64,000 bases of DNA from Patescibacteria group bacterium. GTDB lineage: Bacteria; Patescibacteriota; Saccharimonadia; Saccharimonadales; JAZKJC01. This document shows positions 996 to 62,167 of this stretch, one piece after another. Numbering within the stretch: position 1 is the first letter of the stretch; every line of letters starts with the position of its first letter. The stretch lies in NCBI GenBank assembly GCA_040384565.1, contig JAZKJC010000023.1, positions 1,481 through 65,480 on the forward strand, in the 5' to 3' direction. The position numbers and the translations under genes were made by a program. Below the pieces are notes generated by a model. That model worked only from the letters and a program-made list of their open reading frames with translations, ran no database searches and was not told the origin of the DNA.

Positions 996-1444
996 GATAT
1001 ACGTTTCTTTAGTTCGCTCAGTCTAGGTATAAATGATTGGGCGGCAGCTTCTAATCCCAGAACCCTCAGCGCACCAATTAGTACATACAGGCTGTCGAGC
1101 TCACCATCCGTAAGTTGAGATTTTTGTTCGGCGGCCACAAAACTAAACTCAATTTTCTCTACCAGCCATTTTTCTTCGCTTGGTTTGACTTCGTTGGTTT
1201 GGAACTTAGAAGATTCATCAGACTGAACAACTTCTAGGGAGCGGGCTGAATTTTCACGCTTTCGGATATGTCCTCTTTTTATCAAATTATTAACATGCAG
1301 AGCCACAGTCGCAACTGACGTGTAGCTGCAGCCAGCCATGATTTCCCGGTAGCTCGGGCTATAACCATGCTCAGCAATAAAAGCTTCAATAAAGGTCAGT
1401 AGTTCCCGCTGTTTTTTAGTAGGCCGGATGGGATCATTTACCAT
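992..1444 (-). CDS. LexA-type winged-helix DNA-binding protein lacking the S24 peptidase domain
   Basis: N-terminus KKQRELLTFIEAFIAEHGYSPSYREIMAGCSYTSVATVALHVNNLIKRGHIRK matches the LexA DNA-binding domain pattern. The C-terminal 70 aa has no Ser/Lys autocleavage motifs. Confidence 0.6.
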   Translation of the reverse strand: MVNDPIRPTKKQRELLTFIEAFIAEHGYSPSYREIMAGCSYTSVATVALHVNNLIKRGHIRKRENSARSLEVVQSDESSKFQTNEVKPSEEKWLVEKIEFSFVAAEQKSQLTDGELDSLYVLIGALRVLGLEAAAQSFIPRLSELKKRIS

Positions 1445-1473
1445 TGTTCATTTACCATTTTCCAATTATTTGC

Positions 1474-1719
1474 CTATTTTTCATTTTCATAAACTTTGCA
1501 GATTATCAAACTTGGGTTAAGGAGCCGCCCTGCAATAACCTCATCATCTGACCAGCCCTTTACGTCTAAAACTACTTCTGACTCAGCCCGACGTACCGAA
1601 AGTACGCCTCCCTCCTCAGAAGCAATTTTAGCTCGCAAATCATCTGGCCATATTGAGGAGGTTATTGCAGGACGGCTCCTGATGGGTTCTTGTTGTAGTT
1701 GGTTCTGGTAAATGGTCAT
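1474..1719 (-). pseudogene. Degenerate four-helix-bundle cassette: 10 codons of the gene, then hairpin element A
   Basis: The ORF starts MTIYQNQLQQ, as the intact gene at 7742 starts MTIYQTKLQQ. The remaining 'protein' is the translation of an inverted-repeat element, so it is not a credible CDS. Confidence 0.6.
1521..1679 (-). repeat. ORF-less long hairpin element A
   Basis: GGAGCCGCCCTGCAATAACCTC (1521-1542) is the reverse complement of GAGGTTATTGCAGGACGGCTCC (1658-1679) with one mismatch. That mismatch is C.A on the plus strand and G.U on the minus-strand RNA. The interior is imperfectly self-complementary around a CGTAC-CGAAA-GTACG tip. Confidence 0.7.
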
Positions 1720-1757
1720 TGGTAAATAATTGTGAATTGAAAATTGATAAATGTAAA
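1702..1757 (-). repeat. Cassette 5' flank, copy c (about 55 bp repeat family)
   Basis: The reverse complement reads TTTACATTTATCAATTTTCAATTCACAATTATTTACCAATGACCATTTACCAGAAC, near-identical to 6731-6785 and 7704-7758. Confidence 0.85.
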
Positions 1758-2249
1758 CTATGTCCTATAAGCGCTATGGCCATGTGCTCGGTGAGCCACA
1801 ATGCGGGGCACAGTAACAGTTGCATATTTACGCTTAAATTTGTCTGGAAACACCCAAAACTTGTACCACAGGTAATTCCACACCGTGAAGAACCCACTTG
1901 AGATAAATTGGCCAATGTATGGAGTAATACCAATGTTTTTAAGCCAAAGTACCAGGAAGTAATCGATTATAAAGTCTACGATGGTAATTACAGCATAACG
2001 GCCCGTCACCTCAGTCTGATGTTTTTTAAGCTTGGGATTATTAAATACCCAGTAACGCTGTAGTATAAAGTTAACCGTCCAGCCGGCAAGTGTAGAAACT
2101 GATTTCGCCCAGAAAAAACTGCCTTGGAGCCCCTTGTCTATCAGGAAAAACGTTAGATAGCCGGTCCAAAAATACGCTCCGCCACTGATCATATACTCAG
2201 TCATACGTTTAGCTTCTCGTTGTTGTTTTTTTCGTAGATGAAATATCAT
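1758..2249 (-). CDS. GtrA-family membrane protein
   Basis: 163 aa, four hydrophobic segments, GtrA-like WVF motifs (QRYWVFNNP, YKFWVFPDK). Confidence 0.7.
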   Translation of the reverse strand: MIFHLRKKQQREAKRMTEYMISGGAYFWTGYLTFFLIDKGLQGSFFWAKSVSTLAGWTVNFILQRYWVFNNPKLKKHQTEVTGRYAVITIVDFIIDYFLVLWLKNIGITPYIGQFISSGFFTVWNYLWYKFWVFPDKFKRKYATVTVPRIVAHRAHGHSAYRT

Positions 2250-6692: not shown

Positions 6693-6730
6693 TCATAATA
6701 CCTTAACCAGAAGCTGGAAGCTGAAAATAT

Positions 6731-6785
6731 TTTACATTTACCATTTTTCAGTTCACAATTATTTACCAATGACCATTTACCAAAC
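6731..6785 (+). repeat. Cassette 5' flank, copy a
   Basis: 51/55 identical to 7704-7758. Contains ATG at 6771 opening a truncated ORF MTIYQTKKTS... that stops at 6855, inside the left arm of hairpin B. Confidence 0.85.
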
Positions 6786-6849
6786 TAAAAAAACTTCAAT
6801 AGCACAATTAACTACACTCAATTCACGGCTTTTACAAATGGTAATTATC

Positions 6850-7018
6850 CTATAGCAACCCCAAAACAAAACCTGTCTTTTTTGGGGTGATGGATCAGTG
6901 AGTCAAAAACTTTCATTTCCGACTAAAACATATCTGTTGATACGTTGCAGGAGGAATGGAAGTTTTTGGCCACTGAGGCGCAACCCAAAATGCAGGTTTT
7001 GTTTTGGGGTTACTATAG
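6850..7018. repeat. ORF-less long hairpin element B
   Basis: A 26-nt terminal inverted repeat: CTATAGCAACCCCAAAACAAAACCTG (6850-6875) pairs with CAGGTTTTGTTTTGGGGTTACTATAG (6993-7018). It has one mismatch, which is G.U on the minus-strand RNA. There is a second inner stem (GTGAGTCAAAAACTTTCATTTCC / GGAATGGAAGTTTTTGGCCACTGAG). The element ends 1 nt from the vapC stop codon. Confidence 0.75.
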
Positions 7019-7659: not shown

Positions 7660-7703
7660 AATGTCATTATAGCTAACTTAGCTAAGTATGTCAATATAAA
7701 AAT

Positions 7704-7758
7704 TTTACATTTATCATTTTTCAATTCACAATTACTTATCAATGACCATTTACCAAAC
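7704..7758 (+). repeat. Cassette 5' flank, copy b
   Basis: TTTACATTTATCATTTTTCAATTCACAATTACTTATCAATGACCATTTACCAAAC; includes the start codon of the gene at 7742. Confidence 0.85.
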
Positions 7759-8104
7759 CAAACTACAGCAGCTTGAGCAGCGAACAATCAATTTTAGTGT
7801 CAATATCATAAAAACGTGTGGGAAATATTCGGGCGATGTTACTTTACGTTCACTCATTGATCAGTTAGTACGTGCTTCTACTAGTATTGGGGCTAATTAC
7901 GCGGAGGCAAACAATGCTAGCTCAAAGGCAGATTTCAAAAACAAAATATTCATCGCCAAGAAAGAAGCAGCCGAAACTCGCTACTGGCTAAGAGTATTAT
8001 CAGAACTGCTACCAAACGAGGATTTTAACGAATTATCCCAAGAAGCTCTAGAGCTTAACTTAATTCTACAAAAGATCGTAACTACAATGAACGCAGGCAA
8101 ATAA
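7742..8104 (+). CDS. Four-helix-bundle protein (23S rRNA intervening-sequence protein / Avd-like family)
   Basis: 120 aa; family hallmarks QLVRASTSIGANYAEANNASSKADFKNKIFIAKKEAAETRYWLRVL. Confidence 0.85.
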   Translation: MTIYQTKLQQLEQRTINFSVNIIKTCGKYSGDVTLRSLIDQLVRASTSIGANYAEANNASSKADFKNKIFIAKKEAAETRYWLRVLSELLPNEDFNELSQEALELNLILQKIVTTMNAGK

Positions 8105-8128
8105 TGTTCTCTATTTGGTAAATTTGAA

Positions 8129-9262
8129 ATGGCAAATAATTTGGTAAATCGGCTAATGGTAAATGGTAAATCTTTAAAGGTCGCTCTAGTCTGTGACTGG
8201 TTAACTGGCATTGGTGGCGCGGAGCGGGTTTTGCTGGAACTGCACAAAATGTTTCCAGAAGCCCCAATCTACACCTCCCAATACAACCCCAAAAAAATCG
8301 ATTGGTTCAACGAAGCCGATGTGCGTACTTCGTGGCTACAAAAGCTACCCGTAAGCCTCAAGAAATTTTTGCCCGTATTACGCTTTTGGTACTTCTGGCG
8401 GCTGGACTTGAGCGAGTACGACTTGGTCATATCGGAGACTGGAGCCGAAGCCAAGGCGATCAAATTTGGCTCCTCCACTACTCACATATGCGTCTGTAAC
8501 GCACCGACACATTATTACTGGAGCCGTTACGATGATTATATGAAGCACCCAGGCTTTGGCCCACTTGATCCCCTGGCTCGCCTGGGCCTGCGTTTACTAG
8601 CAGGCCCCTTACGTCGCTGGGACAAAAAAGCCGCTCAGCGCCCAACGCACCTGGTCGCTATTTCTACCCACATCCAAACCGAAATCCAGAAATACTATGG
8701 CCGGGAATCTGCCGTTATCCATCCTCCAGTAGACATAGAACGCTTCCAGCTAACAGCTACCAGCCATGAGCTACCAGCTAAGCGAGGCTTCGCAACCGCA
8801 GGCCGTCAAACCCCCTACAAACGCATAGATTTAGCCGTAGCTGCTTGCACGGAGCTAGAACTGCCACTCACAGTCATAGGGGACGGTCCGGAACACGCCA
8901 AACTTGTTAAAATGGCCGGCCCCACCATCACATTTGTCACTAGTGCTACGGACGAGCAAGTTGCCCAGCATTTCGCCTCCGCCAATGCTTTCATTTTCCC
9001 CGGCCTAGACGATTTTGGAATCGTTGCCGTAGAAGCTTTGGCCGCTGGCACTCCCGTAATAGCTTATCAAGCTGGTGGCGTATTGGATTACCTGGTTGAT
9101 GGAGAAACTGGCGCATTTTTCAGCAAACAAAGTTCGAGGAGCCTTATGCAAGCACTACATAACTTCAACCCAACAAAATATGATTCTGAAAAAATCAAAC
9201 AACATGCCCAAAAATTTTCAGCAGAACAGTTTAGGAATAATTTTGAAAAATTGATTAAGTAA
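8129..9262 (+). CDS. Family-4 (GT-B) glycosyltransferase
   Basis: 377 aa; C-terminal EDFGIVAVEALAAGTPVIA motif. The true start is probably ATG 8156 (MVNGKSLKV), because 8129-8155 is cassette flank low-complexity sequence. Confidence 0.8.
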   Translation: MANNLVNRLMVNGKSLKVALVCDWLTGIGGAERVLLELHKMFPEAPIYTSQYNPKKIDWFNEADVRTSWLQKLPVSLKKFLPVLRFWYFWRLDLSEYDLVISETGAEAKAIKFGSSTTHICVCNAPTHYYWSRYDDYMKHPGFGPLDPLARLGLRLLAGPLRRWDKKAAQRPTHLVAISTHIQTEIQKYYGRESAVIHPPVDIERFQLTATSHELPAKRGFATAGRQTPYKRIDLAVAACTELELPLTVIGDGPEHAKLVKMAGPTITFVTSATDEQVAQHFASANAFIFPGLDDFGIVAVEALAAGTPVIAYQAGGVLDYLVDGETGAFFSKQSSRSLMQALHNFNPTKYDSEKIKQHAQKFSAEQFRNNFEKLIK

Positions 9263-25075: not shown

Positions 25076-27367
25076 TTAATTGCCGCCAACGGCTGCAATG
25101 CCGACAATTGGCTGGAATAGAGGTAAGCCACCTAATGAACCGTAGTTAATAGCTCCGTAGCTGAAGCTACCGCCATCGGCTGCAGCCATGGTGTAACCGC
25201 CGGTTGGGAATCTGGCCATGCCTTTAATGGGCTGAACGAGTGGTAAGTTCCCAGCCGAGCCATATCCTACTGCGTCACCAAAGGGGAATATGCCTCCATC
25301 AGCGGCAACTAACCAGTAACCGTTGCCACTGGCGGTACGCTCCATGCCTACAATAGGTTTAGCAAGATTAATATTACCCGTAGAACCGTAGCCAACTGCG
25401 TCACCAAAGGGGAATATGCCTCCATCAGCGGCAACTAACCAGTAACCGTTGCCTGACGCAGTACGTGCCATACCAACTACCGGTTGCCTAAGATTAATAT
25501 TACCTGTTGAGCCTCTTCCGACTGCGTCACCAAATGGGAAGATACCGCCATCGGCTGCGACTAGCCAGTAACCGTTGCCACTAGGAGATGCTTCCATGCC
25601 TACAATAGGTTTAAAGAGTCTCACATTCCCGGTTGAGCCTAAGCCGCCTTTTGCATTTCCAAATGGGAAGATGCCACCGTCTGCTGCGACAAGCCAATAC
25701 CCTCCACCGTTAGGAGTACTGGCCATTCCTACCATAGGCTGGTTCAAGCGGATATTGCCGGTTGAACCGTAACCCCTGGCTTCTCCGAATGGGAAGATAC
25801 CACCGTCACTTGCTACCATCCAATATCCTTTACCCGCTTCACCTGTTGGACCATCCAGCAGGTCTGTCGCTGCCCATGATCCTGTCTGTCTGGGGTCCTT
25901 GCGGTTCATATGCCAGCCTTTTGCTCCCAGAACGGCATTGTCCGCAGCCTCAAACTCGTAACGACGCAAAACCCCTATATGCCCTGAAGGCTTTTCACCC
26001 GCAACCACAATATCAATCAGGCCATCGCTATCCAGATCTGTAACCAGAGGAGAATTTCTAAATACTACTCCGTCACCTCCATAACTCAGGGTGTATAGCT
26101 CGTTGCCATTTTTGCCATCAAAAATATGAATGCCATTAGCCGTGGGGACTAGGGCATCTTGGCCGCCATCGTTATTTACATCCGCGGTTACAATCTGACC
26201 AATAACTAATGATCCTCCTGAAGCCCGAGGATAACCAGGCAGAGGTTCTCCTGTTACTCCATCCAAAATCCATACTCGTCCGTCATTGGTGTCTGCGGGA
26301 GGATTACAAGGCCGTTGCCAACCACCTATTGCCACATCAAGCCGGCCATCACCATTAAAGTCCGCCATAGTTGGCGACGCCATGGTTTGCGCGCCAATGT
26401 CCTTAGACCATATTAAAGTTCCATTCCGCCTAACCGCAAAGATTTTTGAGCAATCCGTAGCACCACCGGGTTGTCTTGCCCAGTAATTTCCGGTACCAAA
26501 CACAATTTCTATATCACCATCTCCAGTAATATCTCCGATACTGGGCGATGAACGCACAATCTCGTTGGTGTGGAATGCCCATAGCTGTTGGTTTTTGCCG
26601 GTAAGTGCCCGCACCATACCACCACGGTGATCAACAGGGGGCCCTGGTGATGAATCCCCTGGCATAATTATTTCTGTCTGGCCATCACCAGTAATATCAG
26701 CCAGTGCCGGAGAACCATATATTGTGTCATCCCAATAAAGCGGCCAGTTATAGTTCGTCCCGCCATTGCTGGCATTAAGTGACCACGCCCTTAGCCCAAG
26801 CACGCCAAAACTGGCATCGGCAACACCGTCTTTGTTCACATCTCCAAGTGCGGGTGAAGCAAACACTGAGGGTCGGCCACACTGACTACCCTCAAAAGGA
26901 GCATCGTCTGGGAGAATCCTTGGGCTAAAACGCCACGGGCCCCAGGCTGCAAATGAGTACAAACCGCCGTCCCCTTGGCATTCTACTTCTGAGCCACCAG
27001 CCCCAAGGAAAATATCATCATTACCATCCTGGTCAACATCACCAACAGACACGCTATTGGTTGGCGCACTAAGCGTCTCCAGTGTCCAGCCATCATCACC
27101 ATTAAATATACGCGCATCACTTGGTGTCAAACTATTGCCATAAGGTACTGCGGAGCCCAGCACAATATCCAACGAGCCACCGTTTGATTGCATGGGGATT
27201 GGAGAAGAATAGGTAAACGGATTATTGGGAAATTCTTTGGTCCACACAAGTTGTGGCGTAGCAAAGGCTTTAGCGGGACTATTAATGAATAGAAACGTAT
27301 AGCTAGGAGCCATCAAAATAACCAAAAACAGAATTTTTCTCAAAGTTTGTCTAAAAAGCATAGACAT
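25076..27367 (-). CDS. Secreted FG-GAP/VCBS-repeat protein with six C-terminal 42-aa GYWLVAADGGIFPFGDA repeats
   Basis: 763 aa; signal peptide; D.DGDG/ADVNNDG calcium-loop-like FG-GAP motifs. The C-terminal 250 aa is a 42-aa tandem repeat (126-bp DNA period). Confidence 0.7.
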   Translation of the reverse strand: MSMLFRQTLRKILFLVILMAPSYTFLFINSPAKAFATPQLVWTKEFPNNPFTYSSPIPMQSNGGSLDIVLGSAVPYGNSLTPSDARIFNGDDGWTLETLSAPTNSVSVGDVDQDGNDDIFLGAGGSEVECQGDGGLYSFAAWGPWRFSPRILPDDAPFEGSQCGRPSVFASPALGDVNKDGVADASFGVLGLRAWSLNASNGGTNYNWPLYWDDTIYGSPALADITGDGQTEIIMPGDSSPGPPVDHRGGMVRALTGKNQQLWAFHTNEIVRSSPSIGDITGDGDIEIVFGTGNYWARQPGGATDCSKIFAVRRNGTLIWSKDIGAQTMASPTMADFNGDGRLDVAIGGWQRPCNPPADTNDGRVWILDGVTGEPLPGYPRASGGSLVIGQIVTADVNNDGGQDALVPTANGIHIFDGKNGNELYTLSYGGDGVVFRNSPLVTDLDSDGLIDIVVAGEKPSGHIGVLRRYEFEAADNAVLGAKGWHMNRKDPRQTGSWAATDLLDGPTGEAGKGYWMVASDGGIFPFGEARGYGSTGNIRLNQPMVGMASTPNGGGYWLVAADGGIFPFGNAKGGLGSTGNVRLFKPIVGMEASPSGNGYWLVAADGGIFPFGDAVGRGSTGNINLRQPVVGMARTASGNGYWLVAADGGIFPFGDAVGYGSTGNINLAKPIVGMERTASGNGYWLVAADGGIFPFGDAVGYGSAGNLPLVQPIKGMARFPTGGYTMAAADGGSFSYGAINYGSLGGLPLFQPIVGIAAVGGN

Positions 27368-27427
27368 TATTATATAGGATAGCTACATTTCTGCAGTTAT
27401 TAACCCAAGTTGAGTATTAAAGTTGCA

Positions 27428-29632
27428 TCAGTTTGCGATACCGACCATTGGCTGGCTTAACTGTAAATCTCCAGTCGAACCATAATACCTAGCGTCACCA
27501 TAGGTGAAAATCCCCCCATCGGCACCAACTAACCAATAGCCGTTGCCTAAGGCGGTCTTGGCCATGCCAACAATAGGACGTGCCAATGATAAATTACCTG
27601 CCGAACCGTAGCCAACTGCGTCACCGAACGGGAAGATTCCGCCATCGGCTGCTACTAACCAGTAACCGTTACCTGAGGCTGTCCGCGCCATTCCAACAAC
27701 TGGCGAACGTAACTTAATATTGCCCGTGGAGCCATAGCCTACGGCGTCACCGAACGGGAAGATTCCGCCATCGGCTGCTACTAACCAGTAACCGTTACCT
27801 GAAACTGTTCGCTCCATCCCAACTACCGGCTGAGCTAGACGAATGTTGCCAGTAGATCCATACCCTCCGGCATTACCGAATGGGAAGATGCCCCCATCAG
27901 CGGCAACCAGCCAATAGCCTTGGCCATTAAGTGTGCTTGCCATTCCAACCATGGGTTTGGCCAAATTAATATTTCCAGTTGAGCCCTTGCCTGGGGCGTC
28001 CCCGAATGGGAAGATTCCGCCATCGGCTGCTACGAGCCAATAACCCTCCCGAGTTGGAGTCGCTGAAACCCCCACCATGGGCTTGGTAAGCTTAATGTTT
28101 CCGGTTGAACCGTATCCCCCGGCATCACCAAATGGAAAGATGCCTCCATCCGCGGCTGCTAAAACATAGCCTCCATCCGCTTGGGAAAGAGGAGCACCAT
28201 TGAAGTTAAAAGTTTGCTGAGGGGTAGTCCCCGGCATGGGGTATATATCTAGCTGAATAGTCTCATCTAAGCTAACCCCGCCATCTGTGAGCCGATAAAG
28301 TTCGGTCACAAAATTATCCACAAGGTTACTGCCTTGGTAAGCAAGCACCATTTCGCCGTCAGCAAACCATATGCCGGCATACTCGCATGATTCGCCGGAG
28401 TTTATGGTCCATAGCTCTTGGTGATCAGACCCACGGTAAGCTTTGAGACCTTTAGAAGTAGGTACCAAAATATCATTGCTTGTATGAGAACCAGACAACT
28501 TTACGCTTATCATGCTCGAACGTATAACAGTATTGCTTATTATAAAAGGATATCCCGCTAAGACTGTGCCGTTACTACCATTAACAATGCCTATAGTTGC
28601 ATCCGAAGGGTTAACACTGTTGGTGTGATAAATAATTTCGAGTTCAGGGTCTGCATCCATATTACTTACAATCAAAGAGTAACATGGTGTATTGCTTTGC
28701 CATTTTATGGTGCCATTATAATTAAAAACTCGTAGTTTTTGATTTGTACAGACGACCAACTCATCAGTACCATCACCATCAACATCAGCAGCCAAAGGTT
28801 GTGCAGGTGTTTCCGTACCAAGAGAAGCTTGCCATAATATGGATCCGTTATAGTTAAGGGTGACTACATAGTATTGATCACTACTACCACTCGTTACTCT
28901 GAACTGGCCAATTGTCATTACGTCAGAAAAACCATCACCACTGTAATCGGCAATAACGGAATTATGCAAAAAATGACTATCGCTATAAGGTACGATTGAG
29001 TAGGCTGAGATAGTTTGTGCTAATGCTCCGCTTTTATTCATTCGGTATAAGTTACAGCCTGCTCCTCCAAGCACATCCGGTTGACCATCATGGTCAATAT
29101 CGGCTATTGCTGGTGAGCGCATCTTTGACGCCCCAGAATTTCCGGGGTTACAGTATTCACTGTCACCATACGGTGTTAAGTATTTATCGCCAGAAGAGTA
29201 TTCTATTGCTGTTTTGTAGCTTCTTGGATCGTCACCTGCTTTATGAAAAAGAGATAGACCCAAATCCTCTGTTCCGTCACCATTTAAATCAGCTGCCGAA
29301 TATCCAGACTCATTAACAGCACTTGATGGGTTAGCTACATAGTCTCCTGTTAAGGCTGGTTCTCCAAAGCTATAACCACCAGCTCCATCAGGGTATATGA
29401 TATTCCAGTAAGACCTTAATGAATTTGGAGAGTAGGTGCTGAATAAAACATTATTGTTATAAAATTGGGGGTAGCTTAAAGGCGTAAGACCATTCGTACC
29501 ACTCTGCGGACGATTCGAAGCTAAGAGCTGAACTGCAGAAAGTGCACTAACCTTGGGAAGATATATAGTATTGAGCCCTGTAATGAAAAGGGCACTGATT
29601 ATTAAAAACTTTATTGTTCTATAGAGTGACAT
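27428..29632 (-). CDS. Secreted FG-GAP-repeat protein, tandem paralogue with the same six 42-aa repeats
   Basis: 734 aa; same architecture as 25076-27367. The C-terminal repeat region is nearly identical at protein level, while the N-terminal halves are diverged. Confidence 0.7.
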   Translation of the reverse strand: MSLYRTIKFLIISALFITGLNTIYLPKVSALSAVQLLASNRPQSGTNGLTPLSYPQFYNNNVLFSTYSPNSLRSYWNIIYPDGAGGYSFGEPALTGDYVANPSSAVNESGYSAADLNGDGTEDLGLSLFHKAGDDPRSYKTAIEYSSGDKYLTPYGDSEYCNPGNSGASKMRSPAIADIDHDGQPDVLGGAGCNLYRMNKSGALAQTISAYSIVPYSDSHFLHNSVIADYSGDGFSDVMTIGQFRVTSGSSDQYYVVTLNYNGSILWQASLGTETPAQPLAADVDGDGTDELVVCTNQKLRVFNYNGTIKWQSNTPCYSLIVSNMDADPELEIIYHTNSVNPSDATIGIVNGSNGTVLAGYPFIISNTVIRSSMISVKLSGSHTSNDILVPTSKGLKAYRGSDHQELWTINSGESCEYAGIWFADGEMVLAYQGSNLVDNFVTELYRLTDGGVSLDETIQLDIYPMPGTTPQQTFNFNGAPLSQADGGYVLAAADGGIFPFGDAGGYGSTGNIKLTKPMVGVSATPTREGYWLVAADGGIFPFGDAPGKGSTGNINLAKPMVGMASTLNGQGYWLVAADGGIFPFGNAGGYGSTGNIRLAQPVVGMERTVSGNGYWLVAADGGIFPFGDAVGYGSTGNIKLRSPVVGMARTASGNGYWLVAADGGIFPFGDAVGYGSAGNLSLARPIVGMAKTALGNGYWLVGADGGIFTYGDARYYGSTGDLQLSQPMVGIAN

Positions 29633-29839
29633 TGTTTAGGCTTTTACTCCGACTATTGTAAGCCTATGTATTCTCTAATTACAATGTTTCGAGCGATAAT
29701 ATCTTGGCTACTGCACATATTGCTCGAGCGGCTTCGCCAATTAGTGGCATATGTCACACTTCGCAAAGGGAATGTAATGGTTCCGAATCTAGTAAAGTTT
29801 ACACTTCGGCTTTATGTCCCTGTGGTGTAATCTAAAAAG

Positions 29840-43837: not shown

Positions 43838-44579
43838 TACTGTACAAGGTTGAACCTTGTACAGTATGATTAAGGCATGCCTAGCAGGAATGTAGTTAAG
43901 CAGTTTGAGGCTGATGCTATGTATCATGTCTATAACCGCGGAGTTGATAAGAGGATTATTTTTGCTGATGAACGTGATTACGCTGTTTTTCTGAGTTTTC
44001 TAAAATATGCGCTTTTATCTGATTCAGAAAAATCTAAGAAAGATGAATTTGACCCCTCCCTCCTCACTGAAGCCCAACGATTTAACCTAAGGCGAGAAGG
44101 TTTGGCAGAAAAAGTTGACCTGGTTAGTTTTTGTCTCATGCCCAACCACTTCCATCTTTTGTTGTTTCAGCATTCGCCTGATGGTATCACCAAGCTAATG
44201 CGCTCGATCATAACCGGTTACTCAATGTACTTTAATAAACGCCATAAGCGGGTTGGAAGTTTATTCCAAGGTGTTTATAAGGCTAGCCGTATTAATTCTG
44301 ATGCATATTGGTGGCACGTAAGCCGATACATACACCTTAACCCCATAGATTTGGGTACTGATTATAAGATGTATCCCTACTCTAGTTACCGGTTCTTTAC
44401 TAATAACGCCAAGGCAGAATGGGTAAAGCCAGATAGGGTATTGGGTATTTTCAAGAACATAGCCGAATATGAAAAATTTGTAACTGAATATATACCCCAC
44501 AGAAACGAACTTTTAGAAATCAAAGATGTTTTGGCCAACTCTAAAGAACTTACTGTACAAGGTTGAACCTTGTACAGTA
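43838..44579 (+). mobile_element. IS200/RAYT-like unit: Y1 transposase gene bracketed by two identical 29-nt palindromes
   Basis: TACTGTACAAGGTTGAACCTTGTACAGTA occurs at 43838-43866 and 44551-44579 (14-bp stem). Total length is 742 bp. Confidence 0.75.
43877..44566 (+). CDS. HUH Y1 transposase (IS200/IS605 TnpA / REP-associated RAYT-like)
   Basis: 229 aa; YHVYNRG, HUH motif MPNHFHLLL, Tyr motif SRYIHLNP. The stop codon TGA sits at the centre of the downstream palindrome. Confidence 0.75.
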   Translation: MPSRNVVKQFEADAMYHVYNRGVDKRIIFADERDYAVFLSFLKYALLSDSEKSKKDEFDPSLLTEAQRFNLRREGLAEKVDLVSFCLMPNHFHLLLFQHSPDGITKLMRSIITGYSMYFNKRHKRVGSLFQGVYKASRINSDAYWWHVSRYIHLNPIDLGTDYKMYPYSSYRFFTNNAKAEWVKPDRVLGIFKNIAEYEKFVTEYIPHRNELLEIKDVLANSKELTVQG

Positions 44580-49893: not shown

Positions 49894-49936
49894 CTTTTGA
49901 ATCCGGGTAGTCCAATAGTAGGATAGCCTGATAGTC

Positions 49937-50109
49937 CTTAGAGCCTGACCCATTCCCCCTGTTCAAAGGGAAAACACCAGCAGGCAGGGAGTTTTTAGCG
50001 GTTTTTTGGCTAAAAGCATACCTAAACGGTATGGTTTTAGTTGAAAAAATGGTAAAAAGCCCTGGACCTGGTGTTTTAGCCGGACGGGGGGAATGGGTCA
50101 GGCTCTTAG
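49937..50109. repeat. ORF-less long hairpin element C
   Basis: A 23-nt terminal inverted repeat: CTTAGAGCCTGACCCATTCCCCC (49937-49959) pairs with GGGGGAATGGGTCAGGCTCTTAG (50087-50109), with one mismatch. An internal loop of about 10x9 nt follows. An imperfect inner stem of about 50 bp (AAACACCAG/CTGGTGTTT, GCATACC/GGTATGG) closes on loop TAAAC. Confidence 0.75.
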
Positions 50110-50124
50110 GGGGCGTGAGATAAT

Positions 50125-50475
50125 GTGCGTATGACGATAAAAAAGTTTGAGGATATAATTGCTTGGCAAAAAGTCAGAGAACTTAATAAAGAGTTAAATT
50201 ACTCATTTGTAGATTTGAGAAATTTTACTTTTAAGGATCAAATTCTGCGCGCCGGTCTATCAATTAACAATAATATCGCAGAAGGTTTTGAAAGAAGTGG
50301 GGATAAAGAACTTAAATATTTTCTGCATGTTGCCCGAGGTTCTGCCGCAGAGGTTCGGTCTATGCTTTATATGGCTTTGGATATGAAGTACATAGAAGAA
50401 GCCCGCTTCCAGGAACTTTACGGCCTTACAGTGGAGGTTGGTCGCTTGATTACGGGTTTTATAAAGAAGTTATGA
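50125..50475 (+). CDS. Four-helix-bundle protein (23S rRNA IVS protein / Avd-like family)
   Basis: 116 aa (likely ATG at 50131: MTIKKFEDIIAWQK). Shows the AWQKVRELNKEL, INNNIAEGFERSGDKE and ARGSAAEVRSMLY hallmarks. Confidence 0.85.
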   Translation: MRMTIKKFEDIIAWQKVRELNKELNYSFVDLRNFTFKDQILRAGLSINNNIAEGFERSGDKELKYFLHVARGSAAEVRSMLYMALDMKYIEEARFQELYGLTVEVGRLITGFIKKL

Positions 50476-50514
50476 CAATCCAACTATCCGACAATAAGAC
50501 TATTGGACTAAACC

Positions 50515-59086: not shown

Positions 59087-59150
59087 CAAATCCGAAATCT
59101 GAAATCAGAAAACCGAAACAAATCCGAAATCTGAAATCAGAAAACCGAAA
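59087..59150. repeat. 2 x 32-bp tandem repeat (3' flank of cassette)
   Basis: CAAATCCGAAATCTGAAATCAGAAAACCGAAA occurs twice in perfect tandem. Confidence 0.9.
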
Positions 59151-59152
59151 CA

Positions 59153-59554
59153 TTACGCCGTGCTCCTAAGGATGGCGCCAAGAATTTTCATGATTTCAGT
59201 AGCTTCATTCAAGAGCTTCTGTTGAGCGGCTATGAACTCCGGTGGAGCAACCATAACTTCCAGCCACCAAATTGTTTCCCTAGCTTCTTTCTTTGCGATT
59301 TTTATACGCATAGCAAAGTCTTTCTTGCTAAGTGATTCATTAGCCTCAAGATAATTCGCGCCAACAGAACCCGAAGAACGAACCACTTGTTTCCCATCTT
59401 CTATGAATGCTGTTGTCTTAGGCAGCTTACTCACAAAAGAACGAACATCACGCGCAAATAATAACGCACGATCCTCCAGGTCAAACCGTTTCTGATTTCG
59501 TGCTTCGAGTTTCGTATTTGTTTCTGATTTCGTGCTTCGAGTTTCGTATTTCAT
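59153..59554 (-). CDS. Four-helix-bundle protein (23S rRNA IVS protein / Avd-like family)
   Basis: 133 aa; FDLEDRALLFARDV, SSGSVGANYLEANESLSKKDF, KKEARETIWWLEV. The first 22 aa are encoded by flank repeats. The start overlaps the upstream stop as TAATG. Confidence 0.85.
   Translation of the reverse strand: MKYETRSTKSETNTKLEARNQKRFDLEDRALLFARDVRSFVSKLPKTTAFIEDGKQVVRSSGSVGANYLEANESLSKKDFAMRIKIAKKEARETIWWLEVMVAPPEFIAAQQKLLNEATEIMKILGAILRSTA
59488..59551. repeat. 2 x 32-bp tandem repeat (5' flank of cassette, inside its N-terminal codons)
   Basis: GTTTCTGATTTCGTGCTTCGAGTTTCGTATTT occurs twice. It is an imperfect inverted counterpart of 59087-59150, sharing TTTCTGATTTC / GAAATCAGAAA. Confidence 0.9.
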
Positions 59555-60516: not shown

Positions 60517-60838
60517 CTTTATTCTTTTCCCACCTAAGAAAGTTATAATTACATCTTATTATATCAAGACAGTGAGTTAAGTGCACAGAATAGCCCATTT
60601 ATTAATTTTCAATTTTCAATTTTTCAATTTTCAATCAAGGATCAATGACTCAAATAATCCAAAAATTCGACCTGGAGGAACGGACGGCTCGTTTCGGGGA
60701 AGACGTCATTAAACTTTGTCGAACCATTAAGCAAGATGCTATTACCCGTAGTTTGGTTGATCAAGTCATACGATCGGCGACAAGTATAGGAGCTAACTAT
60801 ATGGAAGCCAATGGCGCGAGTTCTAAAAAGGATTTTCG

Positions 60839-61932
60839 AGGTTATAGGAACTTTCGTGGAGGTTTTGGCTCCTCCGTTCGGCTGTAAAGATACCACTCAA
60901 CCAGCCGTCTTTGGTGTTCTTCGCTCATGCCCCGATGTAGCTTGAGCTTGGTTCTGAGCTGGGAGTTAATACCACCCTCTACATAGTTAGTAGTTCTGGG
61001 GATTGGTTCGGTAGTTAGCGCAGTATCCAGGTAAGTGAATAATTGGTTAGTTTGCACTAGTTTCTCCAGTTGTTTGTAGGCTGAGCGTAAGCCCCTATGG
61101 GTATACCACCAGCGTCTATGACCGCTGGTTGGACTGGCAAAGTAGGTTCGCTCCCGGATGAAGCTACCGTATTGTTCCTGCCATGCCTGGAGACGTTGTT
61201 GCCACTCCAGCGATTGTTGGCTGGTCTTGACCTGCCACAAATCTCTGGTGAGTTGGAGTAGCTCCTGTCCAGCAATGGTTTGCGGATGGAGCGTGAGCTT
61301 AACCCGGATGTTCTGCCAGACATGAAACACACAACGCTGAATCCTGGTCTTTGGCCAGCACCGAACAATAGCCAGCAGGACACCTTTCTGGCCATCACAA
61401 ACGATCACTAAGGGAGCTGGCAGCCTCCCAAGCAGCAGCGACCAGGTATTCCCAGATTCCCAACCGACCCACTGCCAGGCGATAACAGCAGTTGGGGTGC
61501 GGGCTATGAGGCAGACCATACTACCAACTCGGATACCGTCAATGAGGATGATGGGGTATAGCTCACCCGTAACCTCAGGCTTTGGAGCAATCTCCCAGCA
61601 CCAGGCTGTCTGAGACCGCCAGGCGCGGTCAGTTACGCCATGGCCGAGTTCGGTCTGCGATTGTTTACCTAGCAACCAGGATACGAAGCGTTCTAGTACA
61701 AATGCCTGGCTTAAGTCAGCTCGTGGCTTGGTAGCACTGCTGGTGCAGCGCGGGCAATACCATCGTTGAGTGCCAGCAGCCGTTAAGCCACGTTTTTGTA
61801 GTTTCTTGCTGCACGTGGGACAGGCATACTTATAGGCTCTTTTTTCATACCATTAATGTCTCACGACATTAATTAAACACAAATAACAGAGGGGAATTGG
61901 TTAAAAAACCTCCACGAAATTTCCGATTAGCC
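60839..61932 (-). mobile_element. IS element (IS256/Mutator-like transposase) with 8-bp target duplication
   Basis: 1094 bp. Direct repeat GATTTTCG lies at 60831-60838 and 61933-61940. The terminal inverted repeats of about 28 bp are imperfect (..GGAACTTTCGTGGAGGTTTT / AAAACCTCCACGAAATTTCC..). Confidence 0.8.
60842..61848 (-). CDS. DDE transposase (IS256/Mutator-like), N-terminal Zn-ribbon out of frame at an A6 run
   Basis: The main ORF carries VCDGQKGVLLAIVRCWPKTRIQRCVFHVWQN and TTNYVEGGINSQLR. Upstream, the same frame encodes YACPTCSKKL...WYCPRCT. The only ATG (61848) is one frame off, across AAAAAAG (61840-61845). Confidence 0.65.
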
Positions 61933-62167
61933 GATTTTCGTAACAAAGCACATATCTGCAAAAAAGAAGCTCAGGAAACCCAGCACTGGCTCCGTATGCT
62001 AAGTGCCGCTGTACCAGAACATAAAGACGCATTACGCGTCCTGTGGCAAGAGGACCATGAATTCGTACTAATCTTCCAGAAAATAATTTCGAGTTTGAAA
62101 CAATGAAAAATGGTATTTGAATGAAAATTGATAATTGTAAATTGGAAATTCCTTTGCGCTAACTCAC

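Follow-up and report, generated by a model that had tools for sequence, protein, structure and literature searches.

A hairpin element within the remnant of a PF05635 four-helix-bundle cassette between the GtrA-family and LexA-like genes of a Saccharibacterial genome

The minus strand of a 64,000-nucleotide (nt) stretch of a Saccharimonadales metagenome-assembled genome (MAG), referred to throughout as the window (GCA_040384565.1, contig JAZKJC010000023.1, positions 1,481 to 65,480), carries between a GtrA-family gene and a LexA-like gene a small annotated open reading frame (ORF) that runs through a long hairpin, and the question this locus raises is whether the hairpin codes for protein, stands in for a lost gene as an alternative cargo, or is an element of its own. 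We find that positions 1428-1764 are the remnant of a small PF05635 four-helix-bundle cassette, here called copy c, whose coding middle is gone and in which a hairpin element, hairpin A, is in place. The best explanation, which we regard as likely, is that a cassette of the intervening sequence (IVS) type decayed after disruption by a nested hairpin miniature inverted-repeat transposable element (MITE) together with an adjacent deletion. The locus itself is ordinary genome decay; it exposes, however, a family of hairpins that has so far been undescribed.

The anatomy is best followed along the minus strand. The GtrA-family gene (1758-2249; Pfam PF04138, E 1.2e-17) ends in a TAG stop codon at 1760-1758, at the left edge of the cassette, its last codons and stop overlapping that edge. 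A cassette DNA profile (nhmmer) derived from nine intact cassettes with flanks of this family matches only the two ends of the remnant: the 5' flank with the first ORF codons at 1692-1764 (model positions 16-88, E 4.6e-15), and the 3' flank, made of GGTAAAT/GGAAAAT heptad-type repeats, at 1428-1488 (model positions 420-480, E 5e-4), model positions 89-419 being absent. The intact reference for comparison is a cassette at 7691-8189 on the plus strand, of the same flank family, with a 120-amino-acid (aa) PF05635 ORF at 7742-8104 (E 5.3e-20). The comparison with it, which the sequence-only reading of this DNA had proposed, shows window positions 1691-1757 to be 90% complementary to 7704-7770, and the 5' flank at 1706-1761 is likewise 93% complementary to 6727-6782, within a second internally deleted cassette (copy b, 6723-6855; 5' flank 6723-6788, nhmmer E 1.7e-15) that has a further hairpin, B, at its 3' edge. 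Inside the 5' flank of copy c a promoter-like site (TTTACA at 1757-1752, a 17-nt spacer and CACAAT at 1734-1729) is followed by ATG 1719-1717.

From this ATG the remnant N-terminal codons of the four-helix-bundle ORF (1683-1719) read MTIYQNQLQQEP, beginning MTIYQNQLQQ, as compared to a family N-terminus of MTIYQ(T/N/D)KLQQLEQRTI, and the next codon (I) merges into the triplet TCA (1680-1682) that adjoins the left end of hairpin A. The core of the hairpin (GGAGCC...GGCTCC, a MITE-like palindrome) extends from G1679 to C1521 and is followed by the triplet TTA (1518-1520), the presumed target-site copy and, in the covariance-model alignment described below, the imperfectly matched partner of TCA. 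This TTA lies inside CTTAAC, which matches the codons L-N near position 100 of the ORF, where the reference ORF (7742-8104) reads GAGCTTAACTTAATT. A probable C-terminal ORF remnant with small indels follows at 1474-1517, ending in NPSLIICKVYENEK and a stop, recognised by eye from DNA and protein similarity; the resemblance of LIICKVYENEK (stop) to the family ending LILQKIISTMKNEK (stop) is suggestive only, and would mean that about 12 C-terminal codons persist. The 3' flank contains the start codon of the LexA-like gene (ATG 1444-1442), a 150-aa gene with a LexA DNA-binding domain (992-1444, V4702_05710; PF01726, E 8.4e-14) directly downstream. Each flank repeats the other in inverted form (1433-1457 and 1706-1730 are 84% complementary), and 1433-1477 pairs with 1706-1753 (72-84% complementary), so that the terminal stem is present in the remnant; in the minimum free energy (MFE) fold both flanks pair around hairpin A, and the MFE of this 321-nt region is -121.2 kcal/mol as compared to -71.4 +/- 5.2 in dinucleotide shuffles (z = -9.5).

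Much of this had been anticipated from the letters alone. That a hairpin had in effect replaced the four-helix-bundle ORF between the GtrA and LexA-like genes is borne out, and all four parts proposed (5' flank, family-typical codons, hairpin and right flank) were found essentially where they had been placed, the hairpin core to the nucleotide; the right flank, said to run into the LexA-like start codon, in fact contains it. The ten family-typical codons predicted are there, although the count of ten was too low, about 13 N-terminal codons being left in addition to the probable C-terminal ones.

The annotated 81-aa ORF (1474-1719, minus strand; GenBank MES2971791.1, V4702_05715) reads through the remnant codons and the hairpin, and is an annotation artefact and not a protein family, in agreement with what the sequence-only reading had supposed. 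It has no Pfam match, and the homologue search brought up no conserved family: among 5.8 billion (5.8e9) clustered proteins it has one relative, P0001 (MES2971216.1, V4702_02775), and an exhaustive phmmer scan of 1.84 billion (1.84e9) representatives returned P0001 again together with one unrelated repeat protein, a spurious match on a short GDEVIAGG motif. P0001 comes from the same MAG as the window and resembles the 81-aa ORF solely in the hairpin-encoded part, the N- and C-termini being different, and this "homologue" is therefore a second copy of the hairpin in another context elsewhere in the genome (copy 2). A third cluster member, P0243 (104 aa), is encoded on a 2.9-kb contig (L088; GCA_040384025.1, JAWVHG010054100.1, 1-2900) that shares 100% identity with the window between GtrA and the final bases of hairpin A, after which its sequence becomes that of the right flank of copy 2, with its small transmembrane ORF and ATP-grasp gene; L088 is thus most likely an assembly chimera across the repeat, or otherwise a recombinant. 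MES2971791.1 and MES2971216.1 should accordingly be treated as palindromic-repeat read-throughs and not as proteins, and the same repeat appears to have yielded a chimeric contig in a public assembly. Looked up exactly, the ORFs over hairpin B and over hairpin C (introduced below) were absent from the protein collection.

What the locus looked like before is indicated by its counterparts in related genomes. The LexA-like gene is common in Saccharibacteria (7955 homologues, mostly Saccharibacterial), and at the empty junctions of L006, L007, L089 and the P0004 contig, where the wider synteny is the same, the end of GtrA either shares 4 or 8 nt with the start of the LexA-like gene or abuts on it (in L007, with a gap of 9 nt). 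At two further loci the junction is occupied by an intact gene with the same kind of flanks, of 123 aa in L008 and 120 aa in L090 (PF05635); the L008 product matches a PF05635-derived four-helix-bundle profile end to end. Copy c is hence a pseudogenised orthologue of these intact genes that keeps terminal ORF codons, and one and the same gene junction is seen in three states: empty, with an intact cassette, and, in the window, with a decayed cassette and a nested hairpin. Since the genes overlap or abut at the empty sites, a cassette that inserted there had to end GtrA with a new stop codon and open the LexA-like gene with a new start codon. The GtrA C-terminus in the window (SAYRT, stop) is like that of occupied L008 (SAYRTK, stop) as compared to SAYHRVKHA (stop) at the empty site of L006, and among 120 homologues only the LexA-like protein of the window starts MVND, most others starting MPE, MSE or MTE. 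The remnant gives both neighbours these codons, and this is probably why it would have been retained and not cleanly lost. Such cassettes rewrite the stop and start codons of their neighbours and can stay trapped after the death of their ORF.

Taken by itself, hairpin A is 161 nt that form a single hairpin, with arms of 27 nt each (1520-1546 and 1654-1680) that are 93% complementary. On the minus strand it makes 65 pairs, 8 of them G·U, with an RNA fold energy of -99.3 kcal/mol versus -66.7 kcal/mol on the plus strand. A homologue is present at 399-563 of a metagenome contig (L037; blastn, E 2.5e-19, 80% identity across 117 nt); there it occupies an unremarkable intergenic stretch, with an AbrB-like gene on one side and a pilin-like gene on the other, and no cassette is nearby. 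All 58 of the 58 predicted pairs are kept between the two, 13 of them by compensatory changes on both sides, as compared to 0-2 such pairs in controls with slid partners; all seven of the one-sided changes exchange a Watson-Crick pair and a G·U pair; and in both A and L037 the G·U pairs are confined to one strand (8 vs 0).

A covariance model, R1, was built from these two sequences and gives hairpin A itself 188.8 bits. Run over the whole window with filters off, it finds A, B and C and nothing else: hairpin B (6852-7018, plus strand) is a diverged member with 75.8 bits (E 5.6e-13) against 35 bits antisense, and hairpin C (49938-50110, plus strand), just inside the 5' arm of a cassette between dnaN and recF, is a more distant member with 41.7 against 18.4 bits. 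Two other metagenome contigs carry elements with 39.6 bits (L023 5635-5802) and 27.6 bits against 10.3 antisense (L033 1543-1672, between rpsO and pnp), versus 7.1 and 11.9 bits for the unrelated long hairpins of L003 and L038; at 21 of 24 nt the apex of the L033 hairpin agrees with that of A, and their loops are arranged alike. Together with the elements in the three unrelated contigs (L037, L023 and L033), hairpins A, B and C form one independent family. Rfam 15 has no match in the window at gathering score, and its E-value mode gave far-sub-threshold generic matches only, for instance MIR7723 with 23 bits against a gathering score of 200.

We note that the L033 element, delimited at 1548-1669 (= L034 1388-1509), is a 122-nt hairpin 7 nt past rpsO and 147 nt before pnp, its favoured strand being antisense to the operon; in E. 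coli the same position is that of a known RNase III-processed pnp leader hairpin. Two further candidates were rejected. A 286-nt near-perfect hairpin at 7405-7690 of L003, from a MAG of the Firmicute Kineothrix (-199 kcal/mol), has an exact 20 nt in common with an arm of A in flipped orientation; an exact-pattern scan of the arm found 5 genome-contig loci and none in the metagenome contigs, and the match was judged coincidental because about 9 chance occurrences are expected and R1 gives only 7 bits. The apparent 221-nt hairpin at 7883-8103 of L014 (= L015 11139-11359) is a false positive formed by two similar divergent tRNA genes.

Evidence that the hairpins have moved comes from the triplets at their ends, read at positions fixed by the covariance-model alignment. 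Left and right triplets are TTA/TTA in L037 and in hairpin C, CTA/CTA in L023 and GCA/GCA in L033, that is, identical in four of the six family members, far beyond chance at 1/64 each; they are TCA/TTA in hairpin A, ATA/TAT in hairpin B (TATA/TATA if four bases are counted), and T?A/TAA in copy 2. The cores all begin with G and end with C (GGAGCC, GAGCC, GACCCC, GAACTC, GCTGAGC, GCAACC). Identical flanking triplets and G...C core ends are marks of a MITE that makes 3-bp, mostly TNA, duplications, and hairpin A has further features of one: it is short (161 bp), has terminal inverted repeats, is without a conserved protein product, and occurs in several copies at unrelated loci, the contexts of copy 2, L037, B, C, L023 and L033 all being different. 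The sequence AACCCA on either side of hairpin A was considered as a target duplication and dropped, since the family alignment places 3-bp duplications at fixed positions.

These observations suggest the following history, in which it is the order of events in copy c that we infer. A MITE of 159-161 bp (hairpin A) would have inserted at the TTA inside CTTAAC near codon 100 of the ORF, and a deletion of some 250 bp beside its left end would then have taken approximately codons 14-99, leaving the hairpin with some 13 codons and the 5' flank on one side of it and some 12 codons and the 3' flank on the other, a residue that gene callers would read straight across as an 81-aa ORF. A single deletion of this size would account at once for the absence of codons 14-99, for the mismatch of the left triplet and for the chance opening of an 81-codon frame. 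Transcription might start at the flank promoter, pass the hairpin and reach the LexA-like gene, the cassette transcript closing into a terminal stem, its flanks being reverse complements, and the stems could be processed by a double-strand-specific RNase.

Several points weigh against this account. The triplets of hairpin A itself differ (TCA vs TTA), which the deletion would explain. The remnant of C-terminal codons is without a significant profile match, the match there beginning at the stop-codon region. The approximately 0.8 Mb of DNA searched, 64 kb of it from this MAG, contained no autonomous element whose ends match, and the ends of the transposase genes in the window (MULE/IS256-type, 60842-61675; Y1, 43877-44566) are unrelated to hairpin A. 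A plain DNA-transposon model leaves the strictly one-stranded G·U pattern of A and L037 unexplained, and the apical half of the hairpin is better conserved than its termini, which is unusual for a DNA transposon. Lastly, the GtrA of occupied L008 is only 63% identical to that of the window, as compared to 89% for empty L006 and 74% for empty L007; with L008 more distant than the empty loci, an ancient presence with repeated loss and a recurrent site-specific insertion both fit.

The one-stranded G·U pairs and the apical conservation suggest selection on a single-stranded form, be it RNA or one DNA strand. Alternatively to a decayed MITE insertion, hairpin A might, whatever its origin, be mainly a functional RNA: a structured leader or processing site in the mRNA of the LexA-like gene, or else a small, stable RNA taken over by capture or exaptation. 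Its G·U pairs are all on one strand, which is the sense strand of both cassette and LexA-like gene and has the stronger fold; pairing is kept in full against L037 with its 13 compensatory pairs; the apex with GGA/GA internal loops is conserved as far as L033 (21/24 nt); there is a promoter-like site upstream of it, and the flank stem includes the LexA-like start codon. We nevertheless consider this quite unlikely: the contexts of the family are unrelated, the favoured strand being antisense to the neighbouring genes in L037 and L033, no Rfam family matches, the 3-bp flanking duplications indicate transposition, and palindromic DNA repeats can retain pairing without selection on an RNA. A broader proposal, to which we give somewhat more room while still thinking it rather unlikely, is that the approximately 165-nt hairpins A, B, C, L037, L023 and L033 would be mobile structured elements of Saccharibacteria that are selected in single-stranded form (RNA or one DNA strand) and that prefer or cooperate with IVS-type PF05635 cassettes, for instance as processing sites or as binding sites of an Avd-like protein. 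The apical GGA/GA internal loops, 8-bp helix and UUN loop, the freely covarying basal stems and the one-strand G·U pairs are the features behind the single-strand part of this proposal. All three hairpins of the window lie in or at cassettes and in cassette orientation, a coincidence that could reflect a target preference, a safe-haven bias or something functional.

The same coincidence speaks for a modular system in which the flanks carry either a four-helix-bundle ORF or a structured hairpin as legitimate cargo, as do the place of hairpin C inside the outer stem of an intact cassette and the ORF-less metagenome hairpins that are bounded by flank-type tandem repeats (L038 5277-5390, L037 4783-4895, L067 259-382). 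Yet terminal ORF codons are still present in copy c, intact orthologous cassettes occupy the same junction, and no cassette surrounds copy 2 or the elements of L037, L023 and L033. The places of the window hairpins relative to cassettes also differ (A inside the ORF, B at a 3' edge, C at a 5' edge), which agrees with insertions that occurred independently, in expendable TTA-rich DNA of a genome with otherwise overlapping genes, and not with a designed cargo slot. A survey of approximately 0.7 Mb around 80 related PF05635 genes, with long hairpins sought by self-BLAST and folding, found no long hairpin adjoining an intact PF05635 ORF and no 5' flank without its ORF, the window-derived chimera L088 excepted. 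A modular system is for these reasons very unlikely in our view. The sequence-only reading, which took copy c to show that flanks can persist with a different cargo, was thus right about the persistence of the flanks and not about the cargo; its generalisation fails, the hairpin being a separate transposable-element-like unit with 3-bp target duplications (in L037, L023 and L033) that also has a copy outside any cassette. Two other explanations deserve little credence. The 81-aa ORF might be a real small protein, for instance an in-frame palindromic insertion like the Rickettsia palindromic elements, given a frame that is open through the hairpin and the same in both copies, an inserted length of 165 nt (a multiple of three) and the in-frame joining of N- and C-terminal remnants. 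That it should be one is extremely improbable, as it has no homologue beyond its own genome and no Pfam match, 13 + 13 four-helix-bundle residues cannot make the fold, the opposite strand is also open, as expected of a palindrome, and the amino-acid differences between the copies (7/7) would all be single transitions compatible with stem pairing. It is just as hard to believe that the hairpin was formed on the spot, by inverted duplication (template switching) through the inverted-repeat flanks, and is not mobile. Long palindromes do coincide three times in the window with cassettes flanked by inverted repeats; the existence of a second copy at another place in the genome and of the L037 homologue with its other flanks has, however, largely refuted a local origin, neither arm is similar to cassette or neighbouring-gene sequence, and the relatives carry 3-bp duplications.

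The closest known counterparts of the cassette are the ORF-bearing IVSs of 23S rRNA that encode S23p (PF05635). The 23S rRNA IVS of Coxiella burnetii has 428 nt, a terminal inverted-repeat stem of 28 bp and heptamer repeats that precede the start of S23p; it is excised by RNase III, and its ORF is decaying, with a 176-bp deletion in one strain (PMC4990558). Leptospira also has an ORF-bearing IVS, as cited in the same paper, which together with a survey of diversity-generating retroelements (DGRs) made up the relevant finds in the literature on PF05635 or four-helix-bundle proteins in Saccharibacteria. The cassettes described here resemble such IVSs in that intact relatives of copy c encode PF05635, the element is approximately 430-500 nt long, terminal inverted repeats close a stem, short heptamer repeats stand by the start codon, and the ORF is expendable and decays. 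In contrast to a 23S rRNA IVS, the remnant in the window lies between two protein-coding genes, to which it gives stop and start codons, with a hairpin element nested inside it; it is not in helix 9, 25 or 45 of 23S rRNA, and Rfam finds no rRNA anywhere in the window. Copy c itself has no PF05635 product, a feature found in its paralogue at 7742-8104 and its L090 orthologue, and from its sequence it is best described as a remnant and not a functional IVS-type member. The window likewise has no reverse transcriptase, no ORF of at least 150 aa carrying a YxDD motif and bAvd matches being weak and sub-threshold, so the cassettes are not DGR loci with an accessory protein (Avd).

As to the hairpin, MITEs with 3-bp TNA/TTA duplications are known as derivatives of some groups of the IS5 family and, in eukaryotes, as Tourist-type elements of PIF/Harbinger. 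The hairpins are like these in being small, non-coding and palindromic, with termini G-R-R-C-C ... G-G-Y-Y-C, duplications that are mostly TTA, CTA or TAA, and copies that are scattered and non-syntenic; they are unlike them in that a cognate transposase was not identified, conservation is higher in the apical half than at the termini, pairing extends over nearly the full length and not just the ends, and it is kept in a strand-specific manner. Correia/NEMIS elements of Neisseria and ERIC elements of enterobacteria are imperfect palindromes of 100-170 bp in transcribed intergenic DNA, co-transcribed with their neighbours and forming hairpins that double-strand-specific RNases can process; our hairpins have no sequence relation to them, a different target duplication (TA for Correia) and an apparently low copy number, with three in 64 kb. 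REP/REPIN sequences are also hairpin-forming repeats, and the window does have a Y1 transposase gene with identical 29-nt palindromes. Hairpins A-C, however, have no sequence in common with those palindromes and do have flanking duplications, which HUH-mediated insertion is not known to make. An integron cassette with attC site is not indicated either: there is no array, the hairpins have three positions relative to ORFs, no tyrosine-recombinase signature was noticed adjoining them, and their ends are by eye G-R-R-C-C and not the attC-type GTTRRRY.

[quoted passage not shown] The subfamily of the reference ORF has 698 matches at E < 1e-8, nearly all of which start MTIYQ and nearly all of which end in LILQKIISTMKNGK (stop) or KNEK (stop). 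The ORF typically opens almost immediately after the 5' flank with ATG-ACC-ATT-TAC-CA, approximately 10 nt after a promoter-like TTTACA-17-CACAAT site that recurs in each of the three window copies and is conserved among metagenome cassettes. In the consensus, CCATTTAYC of the first codons is base-paired to the heptads GGYAAATGG in the 3' flank, and all of nine intact cassettes (9/9) fold with a terminal stem of 16-48 pairs between the 5' and 3' ends. Hairpin family and IVS-like cassettes outside rRNA both merit follow-up, whether the hairpin is approached as a MITE or as an RNA.

The window holds six PF05635 cassettes or remnants. An intact one at 49908-50510 (plus strand; ORF 50125-50475) fills the intergenic space between dnaN and recF, with an outer 28-nt stem (49908-49935 against 50483-50510) and the recF start codon 5 nt past it. 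Another PF05635 gene (60645-60838 and 61930-62100, plus strand), with TTTTCAA-repeat flanks of its own, is interrupted by an insertion sequence (60842-61927) that encodes a transposase of the MULE/Mutator family (MULE/IS256-type, 60842-61675; PF10551/PF00872) between 23-nt inverted ends (60844-60866 and 61905-61927). The PF05635 ORF at 59153-59554 (minus strand) has flanks (59087-59150 and 59488-59551) that are exact tandem duplications of a 32-nt unit, CAAATCCGAAATCTGAAATCAGAAAACCGAAA twice and GTTTCTGATTTCGTGCTTCGAGTTTCGTATTT twice, the flanks being mutually complementary; each cassette family thus has its own repeat-built inverted flanks. At least ten metagenome loci (L012, L016, L018, L020-L025, L081 and L083) have an MTIYQ-type cassette immediately upstream of one and the same glycosyltransferase gene, as has the window with its reference cassette at 7691-8189, and the annotated glycosyltransferase start codon sits in the cassette 3' flank (MANNLVNRLMVNGK...). 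Judged from gene order, this pairing looks like a long-lived syntenic association with cell-envelope glycosylation genes. ORF-less hairpins whose arms or flanks consist of cassette-type short tandem repeats such as TGAAATA occur at L037 4783-4895, L038 13007-13098 and 5277-5390, and L067 259-382, and may be "solo-stem" remnants of cassettes.

Elsewhere in the window, the Y1/IS200-like (HUH) transposase gene at 43877-44566 (plus strand; 229 aa, PF01797, E 3.7e-8) has the same perfect 29-nt palindrome, TACTGTACAAGGTTGAACCTTGTACAGTA, on either side (43838-43866 and 44551-44579), with CTAC/GTAG adjoining, a RAYT/REP-like arrangement; a link of hairpins A-C to the palindromes at 43838 and 44551 was considered and rejected. 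Between 25163 and 28171 there are tandem-repeat arrays of a 126-nt (42-codon) unit in two large minus-strand ORFs (25079-27382 and 27431-29635), which probably encode repeat-domain surface proteins.

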